NCBI GenBank assembly: GCA_002345625.1
Contig: DDWE01000026.1
Span: 581 to 50,970 of the forward strand
DNA length: 50,390 bases
Direction: 5' to 3'
Origin: Desulfuromonadaceae bacterium UBA2294
GTDB lineage: Bacteria; Desulfobacterota; Desulfuromonadia; Desulfuromonadales; UBA2294
Under the pieces are notes generated by a model. That model had not been told where the DNA came from. It was given only the letters and a program-made list of their open reading frames with translations, and ran no database searches. Both the position numbers and the translations under genes were made by a program. This document shows positions 26,662 through 37,610 of this stretch, piece after piece. Each line of letters begins with the position of its first letter. Within the stretch, counting starts at the first letter, position 1.

Positions 26662-29600
26662 TTACAGCCGGTCGATCCAGGACAGGGCGTCCTTAACCGA
26701 GGTCTGGTCGAATTTGAAGCGGAAGTTCAGGTAGGGGCCCTGGGCCGTGTAGTTGCCCTGGGCGAAATCGTCGTCACGATAACCGGTGACGTTGTAGCCG
26801 AGGCTGACCCAGAGATTTTCCGCCGGATTGTAGCCGACCGAGCCCCCACTGCGCCAGTCGATTTGGCCGATCTCCCAGGTGTGCAGGGCTCCACCGTGCA
26901 CGCCGACATCCCATTTCTGACCAAGGTCGCGCCGGTATTCGGCCGAGAGCAGATCGGTGTAGCCGCTCCAGGTCTGATCAAGCAGGTCCTCGCTGACAAA
27001 TTTGCAACCATACTGGAACGATAACTGATTGATCCGGTCCGGCTTGTAGTTGGCGTGTAGGTTGTTGATCACGCGCCAGCTGCGCGAGCCGCCGCTGCCA
27101 CCGGTCTGTTCACTATGGGTATCGAGCCGATCAAGGAGAATCCAGCGGCTGCGGTCGGGACGCCAGACTCCGCTGAGGCTGATCTCGACATTGTTTGAAT
27201 TGCCGCCGGCACGCTCCGAACGGTACAGGGTGGTGCGAGCGCCGAGACCGACTCCGGGCTGGATCCGGCCGGTGATGCCACTGGCGAGCCCGTAGCGGTC
27301 TTCGCTGTCAGAGGTACGGAATTCTGCGCGATTCCACCATTTCCAGTTTTCGCCTTCGGTCGCGCCACCGAGGGCCAGGGCGGTAAAGTCATCGTCCGCG
27401 GCGGCTCCCGGAACGGCCGGATTGTAGCGGTCGGTGCTGTTGCTCAAGGCCTGGGCCCGATCGAAGGAGAAATCGAGGGTCCAGCGTTTGACCTGCCATG
27501 ATTGCTGCAGACCAAACAGGGCAAGGAGACGGCTGCTGTTGTCGTCATTGACGGTACGTTGTACCGAGCTGTCGATGCGTCCGCCCTGCCAGGGGGTGGA
27601 ACGCAGACCGAGACGACTGCTGTTGCCGCCGCCGGAATCGCTGTGGATAAACTCCTGCTCACCGTAGATCGACAGCGGCTGCATCACTTTGAATTCAGCG
27701 CCGAGCAGGGTGCGCGTCGGGTAATCGACGTTTTCGTTGTTGCCGATCGCCTGCTCGTGGCGTGCCTGGAGGTTCAGGCGGCGCAGCGGCTGCCATTCGC
27801 TGCCAGCAAAGACCTGGTTGGAAGGGAGGTGACTGCCATCGGCCAGTCGGTCTTCGGCGCGGCGCGCACCAACGCGCAGGTTGGATTTGGCCTGTTGCAG
27901 GGTGACGGCCCCCTCAATGACATTGCGCCAGGCGTTGGTGTCAATGCGCTCTTCGCGGCTGATCAGACCCTCAACCCCGAGCTGTTTGTTCAATTGATAA
28001 TCGGCCTGGGCGCCGATTTTGCGCGTCGAATCTTCACCGGCGCTGGTTTGGCCGAGCCCGAAACCGCTCTCTTGTTCGCGCCACCAGACCTGACTGTTGA
28101 ACCGGTTGGAAGAGTGCTTGAGTTCGGTCAGCCAGGCGGTGGCGTTGTTGTCAACACCGAGATTGCGATTTTCTGTTCTGGCCAGTTCGGCCCGCAGGAC
28201 AGTGGCGTCAGTCAGGTTCAGCGTGACGTCGCTGCCGTAGAGACTCCCTTTCTTGCTGCCGAGCTCTTCACGCACGTAGGTGGCACCGATTTCGGCACGA
28301 TTGCCCAGTCGGGTGGCGGCGCGGCCACCATAGGTCATGGCACTTTCACTGCCACTGGGGACTTCGTAATCGACGACAATAAAGATCGGGTTGAAGTCGG
28401 CATCGCGGCTTGGGACCGGAGCCTTGAAAAACAGGGTGCCGCTGTAGGGGTCGAGGTCGTAGTCGACGTATCGGGTCAACGGGCGCTGCAGCAGGACAAC
28501 GTCGCTGCGGAAGCGATCACGGGTCTCCAACATCAGCTTGTCGGAGTTTTCAACGATCAATGTATGGCTCAGGCGGTAAAGGCCGGAGGTGCCATCCCCC
28601 TGAATTTCATCGCGGACGAAGGCCTGGCCGGTGTCGCTGGCAAAGGCAACAGCGTCGCCTTGCTTGCCGTGCCACTCGGTCTTCACCCCGGTTAAACTGC
28701 GGCTGTAGCGCGAGAGCTCGGTGACGGTCAGGCCGGTGTCGAAGTCGCCGAACAGCGCATAGAACTGATCGCGTTCGATCTTTAAAAACAGGTTGCGGCT
28801 GGTGCTGGCGTCGTTGTGTTGAACACTGGCGTCACCGTAGAGCAGGTAGTAGCGGTTCGGGTCGATATCGTCGTGCAGGCTGCGCCCCTCGCGGTTTGGC
28901 CGGGCGCTGTCGTAAGCGGCGGTGACCAGCCATTTCCCCTGTACTTTCCCCTTGGCGTAGAAGGCGACGCGACCATCGTTGTAGAGATCCTCCTCCACAT
29001 CGGCGGCCGATTCCATGTTGCCGCTGATGGTGTTGTAGCCGACCGTCCCTTCTGCCAGGCCGACCAGGATCCAGTCCTTACGCTGCTCGCCGCCGACATC
29101 AACCGTCAAGTCGATGGTCTGGTCGACATAGACCAGTTGACTCTGATAACGCCCGCTGGCCATCACCGGCGCGAAGCGGACAATCCCATCCTCGCCGACA
29201 TCGATGGTCGAGGCCGATTCTGGTTGGTCAAAAGCACCGACCTGGTTACGCCAGGGACGCAGATCACCGCCATGGATTTCAACCGTGAACGGGGTGGCCA
29301 GAACCGATCCCTGTTCGTCCAGTGCCTGCAAACGGATCTGCAGCGGTGTGCGCCCGTCGGCGACATTCCCGGCGACATCAGCAACGACCAGACTGGCGAT
29401 GCCGCCGGTGCGCAGCAGTTTAATCGTCTGCTCGAAACGGGGATTGCCAAACGGATCGATCCCCTGCAGCACCAGATTGTGTGCTCCCGGGGCGCCGAGA
29501 TCGACGCCGATGTAGGTGTAGGTTGTCTGGCCGCTCTCGCTATCGGCGAGGGTCGCACCGATTTTTCCGGGCGCAATCTCTACCGTATCGAGCAGCAGGC

Positions 29601-32493
29601 GCGGCTTCAGTGTGCTGTCGAGGCGGACGCCGATAGCGCTGATCGGCTGTGCCAGCGTACTGCCGTCGGCCGGATAGAGGATACCAGGTGACAACGCCGA
29701 CGCCTTCGCTGCAGCCGGTTGCGGCCGGACCGATGCGGTTATGGATTGTGCCGGACCGGCATCGGCGGCCATCTGGTCGAGGGCCGGATCGACCACCACC
29801 CGGTGTAATACGCGCAGATCGGTGCGGCGGTTTTTCGCCATGCCATCCACGGTGGTGTTGCTGGCGATCGGTTCAGCGGCGGCCATGCCGCGCACGACAA
29901 TCTGCTCGGCAGAAAGCGGCAGGGCGGCGGCCAGTGACTTGGCAACAGCTTCGGCGCGGGCGGTGGACAGCTCGCCATTGTCACGATAGGCGATCCCCTC
30001 CCGCCAGCGGATGCTGCGCGCATCGGTGTGGCCGACGACGACAATCTTGATCAGATCGAGTTTTTGCAGCTCGGCGACAATGGCATCAACTGCACGCAAA
30101 TCTTCTGTGCTGAGTGTGGCTTCCAGGGTCGCAAAACGGGGCTGGAGCAGCAACTCCTGTACCTCGCGGCGTTCGCTGCGGGAAATCCAGACCAGAGAGC
30201 TCTCCGCTGCGGGAGTCACCAGGTCCTTGTCGGTACGCGTATCGAAAACCAGATGGGCGCTGGCCGGCATCTCTGTGGTTTCGGCGCTACTGTCGATCAG
30301 GGTGCGGAAACGGACTGTCTCCTGCCAGTCGCCGCTGCGTTCAGGCAGTGCGAAGATCAGGGTCTTGCCGTCGTGTTGCGGATCGGCGAGTGCCTCGCCA
30401 GACAGTTCACTGCTGCCGGGGAGATACTCCACCGCTGCCGGAAGCTCGACCTGCAGACGACGATTGAACAGCGGAATCTCGCGGCCGGAAAGGTTAACGG
30501 TGTAGGTCGCGGCAGAACCGGTCCCAAATTCATTGTCCAGGGCAATGGTCACCTCACCGTTGATCGGTTTGCGTGCCAGGTGAAAATCGACCCGCCACAG
30601 CGCCCCCTGCTGCACATCAATAAATCGGGATTCGGGGCGGCCGGCAGAGCGGCTGTCGTTTTCGCAGTCGAGGATTTCATACCCGACCGGGATGGTTTCC
30701 GTGTCGAGTTGCACCACGTGGCTGCCGGGTTGTACCGAAACAAAATGGTAACGGCCGGTATCGTCGGTGACGACGTTGCTGCCATCTTCCAGGTAGATAC
30801 GGATGCCGCCAAGTCCGGAGAGGGTGGTCTCATCGGCGTCGCAGTCGCCATCAAAGACCCGGCCGATGAGGAACGATTCGCTGCGGAACAGATCTTCAAT
30901 CACTTCGACCCCGGCACGTCCTTCATTAGAAATAATCGCCGGCAGGACGGTTGAGGCAGCACGGGCCCGGTTGATCGCCTGCCCGGGCTTTGCCCCGGCT
31001 CCGACCGCGACCGCGTAACGGATAACGGCCGTGGCACCGGCAGCAAGGTCGCCGACGGTGAAGGTCAGGCTGCGGCCATCAGCGGAGAGGACTGGCGTCA
31101 GTGGGGTGCCGGTACTGCTACGGGCCGAGCCGTCACGATAGCTAAAACCGAACGGGAGGCGGTCGGTGATCGTCACGGCCGGGACGACAGCGGTGTCGGT
31201 GTTGGTGACGCTGACGCTGTAGGCGAGGGTTTCGCCGATACCGATGCTGCTGCGGTCGGCACTCTTTTGCAACCAGAGGATGCCAGCGGTGGCGGTCGGA
31301 TCGAGCGGGACATCGATCCGGATCGCCGGACCGGGGCTGATGGTGAAGACGCCGCCGTAGGAGTCGGGTGCCAGCACGACATAGCCGCCGGCCGGCGCCG
31401 GGTTGGTGGACGGGAAGTTGTAGCTGGCCAGCGGCGTGATCTTCAGACTGTAATCCCCGGCTGGAATCAGCGGAAAGCGGTAGCCGCCGGGAGGGAAGTT
31501 GTATGTAACCGTACCGATGGTGAAACTGCTGCCGGTGATGACATGGCCGGGGAATGCGACCCCGTCGTCGCCGACAACAGTGGTTGCCTCGACGCCGGTG
31601 GCGTTGTCGATGAGGGTCACTTCAACCCCATCGACCGGTGTGCCGGTAAAACTGTCGAAGACTGTCCCGTAGGGGTCGACCAGAGCCTCGTCGCTGCTGC
31701 CATCGCCGTTGATCGGGTCGCGGTAGTCGACGGTGAGAGTGTCGTCGATGGCACTGTACAACTGACCGTCGAAGCCGACCGCTGCGGCCGGGGCCAGTGG
31801 CAGCGAACCGAGGAAGACGCCGGTATCGGGACCGGTTTCGGTCAGGCGCAGATACTCAAAATCGCCGGTCATCGTGCTGCGGATGGTCAGCTCAATGGTG
31901 TCGACCAGTATGGCGTCGAGATTGCGATCGCTATCGCTGAGGCGGATGACCACCAGCTCGCTGCCGGAAAAGATTGTCCCCGGAGTCAGGTCGCCGGGGT
32001 CGGGCGTCGGCAGAATGGTGCTGAAGACGCCGGTGCTGGCGCCATCGCTGCTGAAGCTGGTGGCCGGTACCGTGGTGCCGGCGGGGTTGGCGGCGTAACG
32101 GAGCAGCTCAACGACGCCGGGAGTCGGTAGCGGGACCGTCGCCGTGCTGACCGTGTTGGACAGAATGACAAGGGAGTAGCCAAAAGCATCGAAGTTGAGC
32201 TGAGCGGTGTTGTCGATGCTGGCACCGGCCGGCGGAGCGGCGGTTGCCACATTCGGCAGCAGGGCCATGGTCAGCAGGAGTAAACAGGCCAGCTTCTGAC
32301 CGCGACGCACCAGAGTGTTGATGGTCGCGGACACAAGCCGACCGTTCAGCCGGCTGCTTGCGCAGCCGACTGAACCGGTCGAGAGGTGAACCAATAATCC
32401 GGTCATCCAGGCACAGCTCTCCCGGCGCCCGGCCGCAAGAACGCTGCGGAGGCGAAGGAGTTGTGCCCGGATTGTGCTCAGACGAAACAGCAT
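26662..32493 (-). CDS. Giant secreted envelope protein (gene D): Ig-like (DUF11, Cna-B/SdrD-B-like) modules, an OmpA-type peptidoglycan-binding module, Big-like modules, and a barrel-like C-terminal region of about 800 aa
   Basis: A single uninterrupted 5.8-kb frame. The signal-like segment is [23 protein letters not shown]; the true start is uncertain, with in-frame ATG 32406 and two GTG codons further downstream as alternatives. A DUF11 module reads [32 protein letters not shown]. The OmpA-like module ([12 protein letters not shown]...[10 protein letters not shown]...NRRTDLRVL) lies at about nt 29800-30130. The C-terminus reads [35 protein letters not shown]. Confidence 0.85.
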   Translation of the reverse strand: [1943 protein letters not shown]

Positions 32494-32550
32494 GAGCGAA
32501 CCAGATCGGTTAAGGGTTGGCGTGTATTGCGCCAGCCGGGTTAAGTGTGA

Positions 32551-33666
32551 CTAGTCGACGGTTACTTCAAAGGTGATTGTGGCAAATGACCCGGCAGCGA
32601 TGGTGCCGACATTGACGCCACCCGTGCTGTCCCCTACCAGCGCACCATTCAGGCGAGTTGTACCAGGTGTCAGTGTGGTGTAGATCGGTGCCGTATCAGT
32701 CACCACAACGTTGCTCAGATCCGTCGCCTCATTGTTGGTGATGGTCAAGGTGTAGGTGATGGTGTCCCCCGGTTTGGCGGTGAGGGTGCTGGCTGCTTTG
32801 GCAAAGGACACGTTCAGTGAATTGATGGTAGTGATGACCTGGTTGCCGACGGCCAGTGAGGTGCTGTAGTCGACGGTGGCGCCGCCAGAGTCGGTACCTG
32901 TGGTGGTGAAGGTGACGTTCGTGGTGTAAGTTCCAGTGGTCTCCCCGACATTCAGGGTGCCGGTGTCCTGATCCATGGTCAGGGAGCCGTACTCACCGAT
33001 AGGGTCAGCGGCGGCGGCGGTGCTGGCAGCGACGCCGTGGGCGGTGATGTCGTCAACCAGCTGAATGGTGGTCGTGACTTCCGGCGTACCGGTTGTCTGG
33101 GCGGTGCCGGCCGTGATGGTGCCGACGGTGTAGGCGTTGCCGTTGAGGATTACGGTTTCGGTGCCGGCAAGACCAGTCTCGGCCCCGGCGGGCAGGCAGA
33201 CTTCGTCTGCCCCTGCAACAACGCCCTGGCAAGCGACAACGATGCCGCCCCAAAGAGTGATGTTGTCGATGGTGAAGGTCTCAACCGAGTCGGTAGCTAT
33301 GGTTGCAGAATTGGTCGAATTGATGGCCGTTACCGTGTAGGTGTCAGGACCGTTGCTGTTGGAGGTGATGGTGTAAACGTAGCTGACGGAACCGCCGACG
33401 GTTGTCGACCGGGTCAGTGGGGTGACGCTGATCGTCGGAGCTGCAGCCAGAGTGTCGACGGTGACCGTGGTGCCGTTCGAGGTTTGATTGATGCCGGTCG
33501 CTGCAAGAAAGTCGTAGGTGACCGAGGCTTCGTTGAAAATGGTGGCGCCGGCGCTGACCGCTGCTTGAGCAGCAGAAGGGAGCAATACGCTGGTGATCGC
33601 CAACAGGGCGAGGCCGAACAGAGTGTTGCGGCCACTACGGAAAAAACGGGTTCGTTGCTGATTCAT
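32551..33666 (-). CDS. Secreted Thr/Gly-rich DUF11-repeat protein, candidate fibre subunit (gene C)
   Basis: Start taken at ATG 33666 (MNQQRTRFFRSGRNTLFGLALLAITSVLLPSAAQA), which follows an AAAGGAGA SD; the ORF track opens at 33846. The C-terminal DUF11 domain reads KPGDTITYTLTITNNEATDLSNVVVTDTAP. Confidence 0.85.
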   Translation of the reverse strand: MNQQRTRFFRSGRNTLFGLALLAITSVLLPSAAQAAVSAGATIFNEASVTYDFLAATGINQTSNGTTVTVDTLAAAPTISVTPLTRSTTVGGSVSYVYTITSNSNGPDTYTVTAINSTNSATIATDSVETFTIDNITLWGGIVVACQGVVAGADEVCLPAGAETGLAGTETVILNGNAYTVGTITAGTAQTTGTPEVTTTIQLVDDITAHGVAASTAAAADPIGEYGSLTMDQDTGTLNVGETTGTYTTNVTFTTTGTDSGGATVDYSTSLAVGNQVITTINSLNVSFAKAASTLTAKPGDTITYTLTITNNEATDLSNVVVTDTAPIYTTLTPGTTRLNGALVGDSTGGVNVGTIAAGSFATITFEVTVD

Positions 33667-33930: not shown

Positions 33931-34413
33931 TTATTTAACCCGGACCTTGAACCCCAACTCGCCCTTGCTGCCGGCGGGGATGGTCTTCAGGTTCCAGCGA
34001 ATGGTCGTGATATCAGCCGCCGTTGCCGGGCGCGGTTTTCCGGTTCCGGCATCGGTAATCTTCAGGTCGACGAGCGGAGCGAAGGTGGCCCCGCCATCGA
34101 TGGAAAAATCGATGCTGGCGCCGTCGCCGGTGGCGCTGCCGTCGATATAAACGGTCAGGTCGGGCACTTTGTTTTTAAAGGCCAGATTGGTTGCCGGTGC
34201 GCTGGCGGTGTTGGCGTAATTCAGGGTGTAGATCAGCTCAGTCCCCGGTTCCGCGGCTTCGGCCGGGACCCGCTTGGTGACCGGAGTACCGTTTTCCATG
34301 ACGACAATCTCTTTTTCGGCCTTAACGGTCAGGGTGATGGGTTGTTCGTCGGCGGCAAATGCCGGTAGGGCGAAGGCCAGAAACAGCAGGGTGACAATAA
34401 GGTAGCGGTACAT
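33931..34413 (-). CDS. Small secreted single-DUF11-like-domain protein (gene B)
   Basis: 160 aa. It has a signal peptide (MYRYLIVTLLFLAFALPAFA) and a strong AAAGGAGA SD. The domain reads EPGTELIYTLNYANTASAPATNLAFKNKVP. Confidence 0.8.
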   Translation of the reverse strand: MYRYLIVTLLFLAFALPAFAADEQPITLTVKAEKEIVVMENGTPVTKRVPAEAAEPGTELIYTLNYANTASAPATNLAFKNKVPDLTVYIDGSATGDGASIDFSIDGGATFAPLVDLKITDAGTGKPRPATAADITTIRWNLKTIPAGSKGELGFKVRVK

Positions 34414-34433: not shown

Positions 34434-37400
34434 TTAGCGGACCTGAACCTGGAACTGTAGATAAAAACGGCTGCCGGGGGCCATCGATCCGGTCAGCGGC
34501 TGGCGCCAGTTGGTGACATTGCCATCGGTCCCGGCCGGAGCGCCGCCATTACCGGAGGCCGGGGTGTAGCCGAACGTGGTATCGCCTGTCTGGGAGAAAA
34601 GGGGTGTGCCAAGTGCCAATCCAGAGGCCGGTGCCCCTTCGACAAAGTTGATATGGACACCGGGGGCGTAGGTGTCGGTCGCCAGATAAAGGTACGGGCT
34701 CAGGTAGTCATCGATGTAGATATTGGTCGCCGGAGCGCTGCCGGAATGGTCAACCTGAATCCAGTAAGTGAAATTTTCACCCGGTTTGGCGCTGCCGGAC
34801 GTTGACCACTTGATAATGCTCAAAGGTGGTGTCGGCGATGCGACGGCGAATGAACTGAGGCCGTAGTCGCTGATCGCCCCTTCCGTCCCCTCGTCGGCAT
34901 CGGTGCGAATGGTCCAGTTGCCGGAGGCTGCGTCAGCCGGCAGGGTGTAGATGTACTCAAAAGTTTTGGTTGCTGCACCGGAGTCAGCGTACAGGCTCAT
35001 CGGTAGGTCGTTGACTTGCACGACCCCGAGGGCATCGGTCAGGGTGAGTCGGGCAGCGCTGATGTCATAACTGCCAAAGGGGTCGGAGACCGTGCTACGG
35101 ATGTGGACCTCGGTCCCCGGAGCGACCGGCTGCGCCAGTGGTGCTCCGAGCGCATCAAAGAGAGCAAAGCTCTCGACATTGATGACCGTGGCGCTGTTGA
35201 GCTCGATGCGTGAGGTGTCGTTCGGGGTGATGGTTGCGTTGAATGGATGCAGCCAGACCTCTCGGTTAGACGTGTTGGCAACGACCAACTCGATCACCGC
35301 CCCCTGGGGAATGGATGTTGCCGGCATAGTGAACGAAAACGGATAGGTTTGCGGTGCCCCATTGGTCAGCGTTTGGCTGACGGTTTGTGTGTCAAGGTCG
35401 ACAGTGGTGGCACCGAGACGGTAGCGCAGGGTCAGGTCCAGCGAGACAGTGCGGTTGCGGTTGCTCTGAACGCGCATCTGCAGGGCGAGCGCGTAGTCGG
35501 CATTCAGATTTAGAATTGTCTGCAGTGCCGGACTCAAGGTCATGGTTGCGGTGGTTCCACTGGTCATCCGATAGTAGTTGATCGTGTTGCTCGAAGGGGT
35601 GCGGCTCAAATCCCCGGTCAGGCCGTTGCCGGTTGTCGGTGCCTGCACATAGAGCTGCTTGAGTCCGGATCCCGGAAGGGAGGCGCCGGCGATGATCAGG
35701 GTCGGTGCGGTCAGGGACGCCCCCGGTCCACCGGGGTTGATCACGGTGGCGCTGTTGGCAATGGGGCTGCCATTGGCGCCACTGACTTTGACCGTGTAGG
35801 TGATGGTGACAGTGTTTTTGGCCGGGACCGTAATTCCGCCAATATCGAGGAACCCGGTGCCGTTGGCGCCAGTGCCGGAGTAGGTGGAGTTGTTTATCCC
35901 GCCGCCGGTGCCGGTGACCGTAAAAGCGGTGATGTTTCCGGGGATGTCATCGGTGACCTGTACATTGCTGGCCGCAATCCCGCCGGTCTCCTTCAGGGTG
36001 ATGATGTAGCGCAGGATGTCGTCAAATTCGACATCGCCGCCGTTCTCATCAACGACGGTTTTGGTCGAAGTGGAGAGGTCGGGTTGCATAATGGTGAGTG
36101 TATAGTCCTCAACCTCGCCGTTGGTGGCAGAGCCACCGGGGGTGGCGGTGGTGACAAAGGGATCGGTGGTCAGCCGAAAGCGTGCGTAGGTGGTGCCGCC
36201 GGCAAGACCTGAGAGTCCGCTCCAGTTCAGAGTGGCTGTGCCGTTGGTGGTGCCGGTGGCGACATTGACCGAGACGCCTTCCGCCGTTTCGAAGGATCCG
36301 TTGCCATTAAAATCGATCCAGCCGACCAGATGGGCGAGGGAGCCGGTGGTGTTGTTCACCGTGACATCAACGGAATAGGTTGTGGAACTGGTGGCCAGAG
36401 CCGGAAAGGAGGCGATGCCATCCTCGTCATCACTGCCGGTGAGGTCGTCGCCATCGGCGGATGTGGTTGGCTGACCGGTCACTTCGTCATCGGGCAGGTT
36501 GGTGCCGAGGAAGATCTGATTACTGATACCGTGCCGCGGTCCGCCGCTTGAGGTCAGGGTGCGGTAGCTTTCGGGGGCGTCTCCGAAGTCGAAGCCCGGC
36601 AGGGTGCCGGAGCTGAAGATCAGGTGGAAAAAGACTGCGGAGTCCCAGTTGCGGTCGCCGGCATCGGCAATGGCTGCCTTGACATGATAGGTGGCGCCGG
36701 GGACGACGCTGATCGGCTGGTAGATGTAGTTGGTCCAGCCGTCGAGCTCGAGGTTGCTGTTGGTCGTGGCGACAGTGTTGTTGCCGCCGGCGGTATTGCC
36801 GTTGCTGTTGTCGGTGTAGTAGGCGGTGTTGGTGAGGCTGCCACAGTTGCCGATGTTGCCATATTGACCGACGAGACCGGTGTTGACCCAATTGATGGAC
36901 GTCAGGTCGCCACCCGGGGTCTTGGCAAAGTTTTCGGCGTTGTTCGAGTAGGGGCCATTGATGCCGGGGCCGCTGACAAAAATTCCGGTAACATCGTTGA
37001 AGGCGGTGCAGACATATTCGGGGAATTCATCCGAGCCAAACTGGAAGGGGATGGTCATGATCGATTGACTCGGGACAATGTCAAATTCGATGGCGATATA
37101 TTCGCCGTTGGCTGTCTGTCCCTCGAGGGCGATCATGTCCGGGTCGGTGACGTTTCCGCAGAGGGCGTTTGTCCAGCCTGATTGATTGTTTGGTGAGACC
37201 AGAGGGTCTGTTGGTTTGAGCGGGCCGGTGCCGAGAACCACGCCGCTGGCATCACCGAGGACCGGGCCGGGGCCGGTCGGGGTTGTCCCCTGGCTGAACA
37301 GCCCAACCGCCTGCGTACGGTTGGCGCAACCGTTGTTTGTGATGACCAGATTGCTGATGGTCACCCCGGCCCCTTGCAGGGCGGCCGTAATCTGCGCCGT

Positions 37401-37610
37401 GGTGACGCCGTCATTAGCGACAGTGTTGACGACGATAGCGTGACTGAACGATGGGGGAAGGGAAAAAAGCAAAAACAGTAAAACAAGGGACTTCTGCGCA
37501 AGGCAATTAAAGCGAAAAAGGCCAGAAACCTTAAACAGCCGGGCTGTGAAAAGGCGCAAGATTGTCACATGAAGCGCGCTAAATTGTCGATGATACGGCA
37601 AAAAGTGCAT
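34434..37610 (-). CDS. Large secreted adhesin-like protein (gene A): choice-of-anchor-L-like head, GEVED domain and DUF11 repeats
   Basis: 1058-aa ORF. The head segment DPDMIALEGQTANGEYIAIEFDIVPSQSIMTIPFQFGSDEFPEYVCTAFNDVTGIFV matches the choice-of-anchor L pattern. The segment FDFGDAPESY...WIDFNGNGSFE...NGEVEDYTL is a GEVED domain. DUF11 modules include ILRYIITLKETGGIAASNVQVTDDIPG and PGENFTYWIQVDHSGSAPATNIYIDDYL. The true start may be the in-frame GTG or TTG codons 42 to 51 nt downstream of ATG 37610, ahead of the signal-like segment KSLVLLFLLFSLPPSFSHA. Confidence 0.85.
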   Translation of the reverse strand: MHFLPYHRQFSALHVTILRLFTARLFKVSGLFRFNCLAQKSLVLLFLLFSLPPSFSHAIVVNTVANDGVTTAQITAALQGAGVTISNLVITNNGCANRTQAVGLFSQGTTPTGPGPVLGDASGVVLGTGPLKPTDPLVSPNNQSGWTNALCGNVTDPDMIALEGQTANGEYIAIEFDIVPSQSIMTIPFQFGSDEFPEYVCTAFNDVTGIFVSGPGINGPYSNNAENFAKTPGGDLTSINWVNTGLVGQYGNIGNCGSLTNTAYYTDNSNGNTAGGNNTVATTNSNLELDGWTNYIYQPISVVPGATYHVKAAIADAGDRNWDSAVFFHLIFSSGTLPGFDFGDAPESYRTLTSSGGPRHGISNQIFLGTNLPDDEVTGQPTTSADGDDLTGSDDEDGIASFPALATSSTTYSVDVTVNNTTGSLAHLVGWIDFNGNGSFETAEGVSVNVATGTTNGTATLNWSGLSGLAGGTTYARFRLTTDPFVTTATPGGSATNGEVEDYTLTIMQPDLSTSTKTVVDENGGDVEFDDILRYIITLKETGGIAASNVQVTDDIPGNITAFTVTGTGGGINNSTYSGTGANGTGFLDIGGITVPAKNTVTITYTVKVSGANGSPIANSATVINPGGPGASLTAPTLIIAGASLPGSGLKQLYVQAPTTGNGLTGDLSRTPSSNTINYYRMTSGTTATMTLSPALQTILNLNADYALALQMRVQSNRNRTVSLDLTLRYRLGATTVDLDTQTVSQTLTNGAPQTYPFSFTMPATSIPQGAVIELVVANTSNREVWLHPFNATITPNDTSRIELNSATVINVESFALFDALGAPLAQPVAPGTEVHIRSTVSDPFGSYDISAARLTLTDALGVVQVNDLPMSLYADSGAATKTFEYIYTLPADAASGNWTIRTDADEGTEGAISDYGLSSFAVASPTPPLSIIKWSTSGSAKPGENFTYWIQVDHSGSAPATNIYIDDYLSPYLYLATDTYAPGVHINFVEGAPASGLALGTPLFSQTGDTTFGYTPASGNGGAPAGTDGNVTNWRQPLTGSMAPGSRFYLQFQVQVR

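Follow-up and report, generated by a model that had tools for sequence, protein, structure and literature searches.

Four co-oriented genes on the minus strand of contig DDWE01000026.1 from Desulfuromonadaceae bacterium UBA2294, here called A, B, C and D, encode proteins with DUF11 domains, a family renamed CLIPPER in a 2025 survey (PMC12617251). Three of the four proteins end before their last DUF11 domain is complete, which raises the question of where the missing strands come from. We addressed it in a stretch of 50,390 nucleotides (nt) from this contig, which we call the window and whose numbering is used for all coordinates. The initial annotation of the window had proposed that the terminal DUF11 domains of A, B and C lack a β-strand, that the N-termini of mature C and D provide it, and that the proteins form a tip-shaft-base fiber held together by strand complementation. 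We found the pattern of truncations and N-terminal hairpins to be real, far beyond chance and strongly conserved. From comparison of sequences and predicted folds, we think it likely that A to D build a self-assembling tip-shaft-anchor fiber in which a CLIPPER domain is split between adjoining subunits and probably locked by an isopeptide bond.

The terminal DUF11 domain of C matches positions 4-84 of the 114 positions of the Pfam profile, and the match stops one residue short of the stop codon. For the internal DUF11 domain of D the match covers positions 4-98 and runs beyond the point at which that of C ends. None of the terminal domains of A, B and C extends past profile position 84, so that the final two strands are absent, and their last [FY]-x-V-x-V strand is followed by only one or two residues before the C-terminus (...VQVR in A, ...VRVK in B and ...VTVD in C). 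A complete CnaA-like sandwich of seven to nine strands within one chain is present in the internal domains of A and D and absent from the terminal domains of A, B and C, which bears out the claim that these lack the next strand. Family membership itself is clear for A, C and D, which scored 41.4, 36.1 and 42.2 bits on PF01345 (cut-off 24.6); B scored 23.0 bits, slightly under the cut-off, and reached 33.3 bits on TIGR01451 (cut-off 24).

The same endpoint recurs in relatives. Among 22 C homologs, down to 31% identity, the complete ones terminate 0-2 residues past an A-T-I-x-F-x-V-T-V strand. We also collected 10 related loci, nine from species-representative genomes and one from a metagenome scaffold, several of which carry a paralog of C that we call C2. 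All A-, B-, C- and C2-type proteins of these loci stop at the same strand, with one residue after it in most C-type and two in most C2-type proteins; the A-like protein of locus L002, for example, ends in the same truncated domain as A.

A counterpart to the missing strands stands at the N-termini of mature C and D. The annotation had suggested that a single strand is donated, which was not borne out: the donor element is a two-strand hairpin of about 35 residues, composed of a strand that carries an Asn (the Asn strand) and a final S-N-x-x-x-V-x-V strand. Every sequence that had been quoted is present in the window, and only the motif coordinates, which were slightly short, needed correction, to 33508-33561 for AVSAGATIFNEASVTYDF of C and to 32182-32238 for D. 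The 22 C homologs share an A-x-A site followed by an A-x-S-x-G-A-x-I-x-N-x-x-x-V-x-Y start, and I-x-N-x-A directly follows the signal peptide in eight of eight D-like N-termini read from the protein search. A cleavage compatible with the A-x-A rule would place the Asn at +10 in 32 of 34 C-type and 90 of 91 C2-type sequences; this simple (-3,-1) rule is too permissive for N-termini rich in Ala, Gly and Ser to prove the cleavage site.

Donors and acceptors are distributed unevenly among the four proteins. A and B have an acceptor and no donor, C has both, and D has a donor, its sole CLIPPER domain being complete. The distribution that had been described (A acceptor only, C donor plus acceptor, D donor plus membrane/peptidoglycan anchor) thus holds in the window and in the 10 related loci; it had left out B, which is acceptor-only as well. 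We considered the N-terminus of mature A, which starts IVVNTVAND (37410-37436) and bears a loose likeness to the donor motif, as a further donor and judged that it is not one: its Asn lies at +4 instead of +10 and the segment abuts the choice-of-anchor L match, which begins just downstream.

The initial annotation had also overlooked that DUF11 is a known isopeptide domain, so that the joint is probably covalent. In the crystal structure 9IFR, Lys715 of the first strand of a CnaA-like sandwich is joined within the chain to Asn806 of the penultimate strand by an isopeptide bond, with Asp748 as catalyst; in DUF11 domains without the bond these triad positions are unconserved (PMC12617251). In the window this triad is split between chains. 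The spacing of Lys290 and Asp324 in C is 34 residues, against 33 in 9IFR, and C ends about 10 residues ahead of the expected position of the Asn. The terminal domains hold Lys and Asp and have no Asn in cis, and the invariant Asn is found at +10 in the hairpin of the partner, where it lines up with the Asn column of the family. Asn45, in the N-terminal motif of the C precursor, and Lys290 and Asp324, in its C-terminal domain, are invariant in the 22 C homologs and are kept in 12 further representatives of 50%-identity clusters, that is, in 34 C-type proteins in all. Of 93 C2 paralogs, 92 carry the donor Asn and about 90 the Lys, and a simple pattern match finds the Asp in at least 82. Because the same positions are unconserved where no bond forms, the invariance of the triad suggests that its chemistry is in use here.

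We next describe the register in which hairpin and acceptor fit together. We built a hidden Markov model (HMM) on 18 D-like proteins, using only their complete internal CLIPPER domains and no N-termini; these domains conserve Lys, Asp and Asn, and in them a last S-N-x-A-x-A-x-V-x-V strand follows the Asn strand. Chimeras of a terminal domain and a mature N-terminus (C/C, C/D, B/C and A/C) aligned to this model free of gaps across the nick. In each, the donor Asn coincided with the conserved Asn column of the model, and 10 residues separated the Asn from the last acceptor strand, as in complete domains. On the Pfam profile the C+C, C+D and B+C chimeras carried the end of the match from position 84 on to 96-98, and the DUF11 score of the acceptor domain of A rose from 22.6 to 29.7 bits once the C hairpin was appended. 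A phmmer search of PDB sequences with an acceptor-plus-hairpin chimera gave nothing useful. The shared register and equal loop length suggest that the point where one subunit ends and the point where signal peptidase cleaves the next together act as a nick in one loop. It is on register and conservation that we rely, since the strands are short and of low complexity and a gain in score alone is therefore weak evidence.

The arrangement of the genes is conserved along with the two elements. The order B-C1-(C2)-D, where C1 is the C-type gene, recurs in all 10 related loci, whose hosts are Desulfuromonadales, two Geobacter metagenome-assembled genomes (MAGs), Geomobilimonas luticola JCM 17780 (L007), an uncultured deltaproteobacterium, Syntrophaceae, Mariprofundaceae and two Pseudomonadales MAGs. 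B lies immediately upstream of C in 10 of 10 loci, is always acceptor-only, and is duplicated in L004 and L010. Both C1 and C2 have donor and acceptor, and D has a donor and a complete CLIPPER only. Conservation of the N-terminal motif and of the truncated C-terminal domain in orthologous loci, which the initial annotation had put forward as a check, was thus found. The A-type heads vary between loci, with a truncated terminal domain common to them wherever it is readable; in L010 (L010:1-3594), for instance, the head consists of PATR repeats followed by a truncated DUF11 domain. Large proteins with arrays of DUF7933 and DUF11 domains downstream of D in L001 (L001:18669-21176) and L007 (L007:17302-20982) may be A-type tips as well; their C-terminal ends fall outside the loci and were not read. 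About 15 full-length C-type clusters are among the best 150 matches of a search of 1.8 billion cluster representatives, in which giant multi-DUF11 proteins dominate and which gives no family size.

A natural fusion joins the two halves of the proposed domain. In L004, C2 and D form a single protein with the junction ...KSILILYRATV-GNANQGNQ-IVSSARFSS-PDIATA-SSSVTVTVV..., in which a loop of eight residues, and no signal peptide, lies between the last strand of C2 and the D hairpin. L010 carries the same fusion, its C2 part being 59% identical to that of L004. The HMM of internal D domains and the Pfam profile both run colinearly through the L004 junction, and the Pfam match covers positions 11-107 with the hairpin versus 11-76 without it. 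The colinear fusion shows the N-terminus of D to be the end that C-type terminal domains lack. Gln has replaced the acceptor Lys in both fusions and Ser the Asn of the strand, and in L010 the Asp has also become Ala; the unfused C2-like proteins of the genome loci all keep the Lys. Lys and Asn have thus disappeared just where the two parts are connected through the backbone, which fits a triad pair that is needed only for separate chains.

Single-chain AlphaFold2 models, which we read by confidence and strand positions, agree with this count of strands. Mature C, modeled from an alignment of 21 sequences, reached a mean predicted local distance difference test score (pLDDT) of 85.8 and a predicted template modeling score (pTM) of 0.73, with its domains near 90 in pLDDT. 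The hairpin strands, at residues 7-17 and 24-34, had pLDDT values of 62-67, the lowest of the structured parts of C. Residues 86-545 of D were modeled with a mean pLDDT of 83 and include the CLIPPER strands 403-412, 419-429 and 440-447, of which the middle one is the Asn strand. In C, the terminal domain stops after the counterpart of strand 403-412, and the complete CLIPPER of D has two strands more. In Foldseek, the internal CLIPPER of D aligned to 9IFR with a template modeling (TM) score of 0.78 and a root-mean-square deviation of 3.3 Å. 9IFR was absent from the top 50 Foldseek matches of the C model, whose whole-chain matches were generic immunoglobulin (Ig)-like folds only.

The in-register HMM alignment, the natural fusion and the AlphaFold2 strand count support the earlier proposal of a tip-shaft-base fiber formed by strand complementation. 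We propose that the Sec pathway would export the subunits and that their signal peptides would be removed. The exposed hairpin of C or D would then complete the sandwich of A, B or C by inserting into its open terminal domain. This would bring Asn10 of the hairpin beside the Lys and Asp of the acceptor as in an intact CLIPPER, where a Lys-Asn isopeptide bond would probably form spontaneously. C would polymerize head to tail as the shaft. Either A, as adhesin head, or B, as minimal cap, would close the acceptor-only end because neither has a donor, and D would terminate the other because it has no open acceptor. The OmpA domain of D would tie the fiber to peptidoglycan, and its C-terminal ~850 residues would probably tie it to the outer membrane. 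Insertion in trans, irrespective of whether the joint is covalent, is in our judgment quite likely, more so than the full mechanism. We infer this insertion, as well as the isopeptide link, the direction and place of growth, and the way in which subunits get across the outer membrane; observed directly are the truncation, the conserved hairpin, the split triad, the gene order, the fusion and the lack of chaperone, usher or sortase genes.

Some observations weigh against a fiber of this kind, or against the bond at some of its joints. In the window B has Asn where the catalytic Asp would stand (34171-34173, its Lys being at 34312-34314), as it does in L007, L008 and L009, and it retains the Asp in seven loci. 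The D donors of L007 (KIVSTVRV) and L009 (TVISSPAQL) have Ser in place of the Asn, and the C2 donors of the fusion lineage, L004 and L010, have Ala. The fusion itself represents one lineage and one evolutionary event, not several. In D, an OmpA domain of periplasmic type lies between a presumed surface part and a presumed barrel, which poses a puzzle of topology. To these are added the points from modeling and scoring considered below. Because some end joints are without a triad member, covalent locking is probably not universal outside the shaft: judging from these donor sequences, the joint between shaft and anchor may be non-covalent in some lineages, and B could be a distal cap, a nucleator or a reversible holder of hairpins.

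If the bond were missing from every joint, hairpins would complement acceptors non-covalently only, and the conserved triad would be an inheritance from CLIPPER ancestors with a structural role. This is the alternative that survives best, and we regard it as unlikely. In its favor, beyond the substitutions just listed, chaperone-usher pili, type V pili, TasA fibers and cannulae are all stable without covalent links, and the N35A mutant of BsaA, a fiber protein of Clostridium perfringens, still oligomerizes (bioRxiv 10.1101/2024.11.04.621531). The invariance of the triad at the C-C shaft joint through 34 diverged sequences argues against it, as does the lack of conservation of the same positions in CLIPPERs without the bond (PMC12617251). 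It also has to contend with the fusions, in which Lys and Asn both vanish where the backbone links the parts.

A second alternative dispenses with complementation. The terminal domains would be stable short variants of CLIPPER, the N-terminal motif would be part of its own domain or an export or sorting signal (for example for the barrel of D), and A to D would be four separate surface proteins. Several results can be read this way: the truncated domain of C was modeled confidently alone (pLDDT ~90), the hairpin of D reached a pLDDT of ~84 in the monomer model and may pack on its own domain, and compact seven-strand relatives (DUF7507) exist (PMC12617251). The gain in profile score is also small, at about 3-7 bits. 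Real hairpins added 6.5-7.5 bits against the Pfam profile versus 2.6-3.7 bits for shuffled or unrelated controls, and on the HMM of internal D domains a real hairpin scored ~3-5 bits over the shuffled mean and seldom above the best of 100 shuffles. However, separate proteins would leave unexplained why Lys and Asp are invariant without an Asn in cis, why the Asn is fixed at +10 with an exact match of loop length, why A, B and D differ in having donor or acceptor, and why the N-terminus of D in the C2::D fusion is colinear with the C2 domain and yields a complete CLIPPER profile. We therefore consider this alternative rather improbable. Complementation in cis, with the C hairpin folded into its own C-terminal domain to give a closed, internally stapled monomer, seems to us very improbable, because although C has both parts, self-capped closed monomers have been proposed for TafA, and the pTM of the C model would allow a compact arrangement, A and B have acceptors without a donor, D has a donor without an open acceptor, the fusion unites parts of two different genes, and the hairpin is the least confident part of the C model, which one would not expect of a strand buried in its own chain. 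A transient cis-capped state may nevertheless occur before assembly.

The fiber that we favor, joined in trans, would have D as its base. From N- to C-terminus, D consists of the donor hairpin, Ig-like domains, the complete CLIPPER, an SdrD_B-like domain, the OmpA-like domain and a conserved C-terminal region. D matches the carboxypeptidase-regulatory-like and SdrD_B-like families weakly, below threshold, and ~1000 further residues have no family match. The C-terminal region of ~850 residues is the best conserved part of the cassette, with 62% mean column identity over eight orthologs. A profile search found no homolog of it in Pfam or among PDB sequences, and it matched no usher model. It ends with a β-signal-like F-R-F-K-F motif and is presumed to be an outer-membrane β-barrel. 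The domain order of D recalls that of type Vd autotransporters.

Genes for known assembly machineries were not found. A PapD-like chaperone, an usher and a sortase are all absent from A to D, from the seven flanking genes of the window and from the adjacent open reading frames (ORFs) sampled in seven related loci. No secretion genes are conserved beside the cassette, no gene for a SipW-like signal peptidase lies in the window neighborhood, and no LPXTG-type sorting signal is present at the C-termini of A, B and C. Peptidase_M73 (TasA/camelysin) gave no significant match in A to D, the sole match (E = 0.09) being to a shuffled control. Neither C nor D has the lipobox Cys of type V pili; both signal peptides terminate in a Cys-free A-x-A. 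Similarly, the subunits are multi-domain CLIPPER proteins that have neither a Fimbrial-family fold nor the single N-terminal extension strand of chaperone-usher pilins.

The closest relatives by family are the CLIPPER adhesins, which have the same triad of Lys in the first strand, Asp, and Asn in the penultimate strand (PMC12617251). The model adhesin B9T28_05395 combines an adhesive head, a GEVED-like domain, a CLIPPER stalk and an OmpA-like anchor in a single chain (PMC12617251), a list of parts that matches cassette A-D. In 9IFR, domain and bond lie within one chain, whereas here the Asn strand and the last strand are encoded at the N-terminus of a separately secreted protein. CLIPPER has been known hitherto as an intramolecular cross-link only, and the cassette looks like a single-chain CLIPPER adhesin cut into secreted pieces. 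The CLIPPER survey, which screened single-chain AlphaFold models, does not mention split or intermolecular CLIPPERs (PMC12617251).

Two other fibers combine strand donation with isopeptide bonds. In BsaA, an N-terminal segment inserts into the sheet of the next subunit and a spontaneous Asn-Lys isopeptide bond locks it, with an acidic residue of the acceptor as catalyst and without sortase (bioRxiv 10.1101/2024.11.04.621531). BsaA differs in its TasA/Peptidase_M73-like fold, its Gram-positive host, the SipW peptidase in its locus and its secretion linked to type IV pili; furthermore, its catalyst is Glu rather than Asp, it donates one strand, and it has no subunit that anchors it to outer membrane and peptidoglycan. 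The archaeal threads of Saci_0406, a looser parallel, likewise show head-to-tail donor-strand complementation with isopeptide bonds between subunits, and they share Sec export, cleavage by signal peptidase I, a cap-like paralog alongside and the lack of a known chaperone-usher system (PMC9715654). Unlike the proteins described here, Saci_0406 is archaeal, has no Pfam domain and adopts a FimA-like fold, and its bond joins the N-terminal α-amine of Asp24 to Asn57 of subunit n+2, with no Lys-Asn pair in one domain (PMC9715654).

Chaperone-usher pili such as type 1 and P pili follow the same logic of tip, shaft and terminator, with a tip that only accepts and a terminator that is unable to accept. 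They differ from the cassette, which has no PapD-like chaperone or usher, donates a two-strand hairpin on a multi-domain subunit and probably forms covalent joints. Sortase pili (SpaA, BcpA and RrgB) resemble it in their multi-domain pilins with CnaA/CnaB-type isopeptide domains and in their covalent shaft, and the model of D matched BcpA, SpaA, SpaD and RrgB in Foldseek. By contrast, the cassette has no LPXTG, pilin-motif Lys or sortase, and its link would be autocatalytic and lie inside the reconstituted domain. Some apparent precedents were set aside: the match in the paper on tafi came through DUF1102 only, DUF11 domains in the paper on F-ENA are spacer domains only, and the sfz stalk cluster of Zetaproteobacteria is exopolysaccharide-based and unrelated. 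The suggestion that such complementation has not been described for DUF11 proteins agrees with our full-text literature searches, which lay mostly outside subscription journals and in which split or intermolecular CLIPPERs and split CLIPPER pili were nowhere described.

Covalently polymerized pili are a Gram-positive feature and depend on sortase, and the donor-strand pili of Gram-negative bacteria are non-covalent and require a chaperone-usher system or proteolytic maturation. If our reading is correct, it would add a further assembly route for Gram-negative pili, in which strand complementation is followed by self-ligation through a split isopeptide domain, and it would show how a long single-chain adhesin can evolve into a polymer of adjustable length with exchangeable tips. 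More tentatively, and with the balance tipped slightly against so broad a claim, we suggest that the cassettes represent a class of pili that is widespread among diderm bacteria (Desulfuromonadota, Syntrophia, Zetaproteobacteria and Gammaproteobacteria) and has been overlooked. In this view, cuts at domain loops would have turned a single-chain CLIPPER adhesin into a tip, a shaft and an anchor that are secreted separately and religate autocatalytically outside the cytoplasm through CnaA-type isopeptide domains shared by two chains, a natural two-strand Tag/Catcher in which D would be terminator, anchor to peptidoglycan and outer membrane, and perhaps export pore. The carriers are environmentally important anaerobes and iron-cycling bacteria, and G. 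luticola JCM 17780 is a named culture-collection strain. Surveys of isopeptide bonds based on single-chain models would presumably overlook triads that are split between chains. The pairs of hairpin and acceptor (C into C, C into A or B, D into C, and those of the C1 and C2 paralogs) are candidates for orthogonal protein-ligation tags.

Table 1. Coordinates of cassette genes, domains and related features. Positions without a prefix are in window numbering (nt); those with an L prefix refer to the related locus named. aa, amino acids.
Feature	Position	Strand	Description
Gene A	34434-37610	minus	1058 aa, candidate tip adhesin; signal peptide, choice-of-anchor L, GEVED, one complete and one truncated CLIPPER
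Complete CLIPPER of A	35739-36074	minus	
Acceptor domain of A	34437-34826	minus	truncated CLIPPER, ends ...FYLQFQVQVR; Lys 34809-34811, Asp 34707-34709
Gene B	33931-34413	minus	160 aa; signal peptide and single truncated CLIPPER
Gene C	32551-33666	minus	371-aa precursor, candidate shaft subunit; donor hairpin and acceptor domain
Signal peptide of C	33562-33666	minus	predicted cleavage ...SAAQA/AVSAG, after A-x-A; site conserved in alignment
Donor hairpin of C	33442-33561	minus	AVSAGATIFNEASVTYDF...QTSNGTTVTVDTLAA; invariant Asn10 at 33532-33534
Acceptor domain of C	32554-32820	minus	truncated CLIPPER, ends ...ATITFEVTVD; invariant Lys 32797-32799, Asp 32695-32697
Gene D	26662-32493	minus	up to 1943 aa, candidate terminator and anchor
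Donor hairpin of D	32134-32238	minus	ends ...SNTVSTATV, after predicted cleavage; Asn10 at 32209-32211
Complete internal CLIPPER of D	30892-31281	minus	Lys, Asp and Asn all in cis; reference for whole domain
OmpA-like peptidoglycan-binding domain of D	29827-30135	minus	PF00691, 1.2e-12
Conserved C-terminal region of D	26665-29214	minus	~850 aa, ends ...YLNFRFKF and 17 further residues
D gene with Ser donor	L007:11177-17218		
D gene with Ser donor	L009:11185-18501		
C2::D fusion, intact	L004:11116-17337		Syntrophaceae MAG, single reading frame
C2::D fusion, frameshifted	L010:6241-12736		apparent 1-nt frameshift after ...LTSPD

We placed the start of C at the ATG at 33666, which is preceded by an AAAGGAG ribosome-binding site; the 431-aa ORF from 33846 is an upstream extension. 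B has a ribosome-binding site resembling that of C. In the ORF of D, about 60 codons precede the likely signal peptide (32310-32493), and several D homologs are likewise annotated with long leaders; a GTG at 32310 or 32334 is probably the start of D. The family matches of A are to choice_anch_L (1.4e-42), GEVED (2.7e-13) and DUF11 (2.1e-10).

The window genes on either side of the cassette have no relation to pilus assembly and encode a glycosyltransferase, YdjC, an acetyl-CoA hydrolase, a DUF190 protein, a methylase, a LolA-like protein and an FtsX-type permease. A scan for promoters and terminators gave counts no higher than background. The GC (guanine plus cytosine) fraction is 0.58-0.62 at window positions ~16000-41000 versus 0.52-0.55 on both sides, and the cassette may sit in a compositionally distinct block. 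Among the related loci, L001 encodes a protein with response-regulator, PAS, GGDEF and EAL domains upstream of the cassette (L001:6178-8352), a possible link to cyclic di-GMP, and L009 has an IS66 transposase downstream of D (L009:18858-19748).

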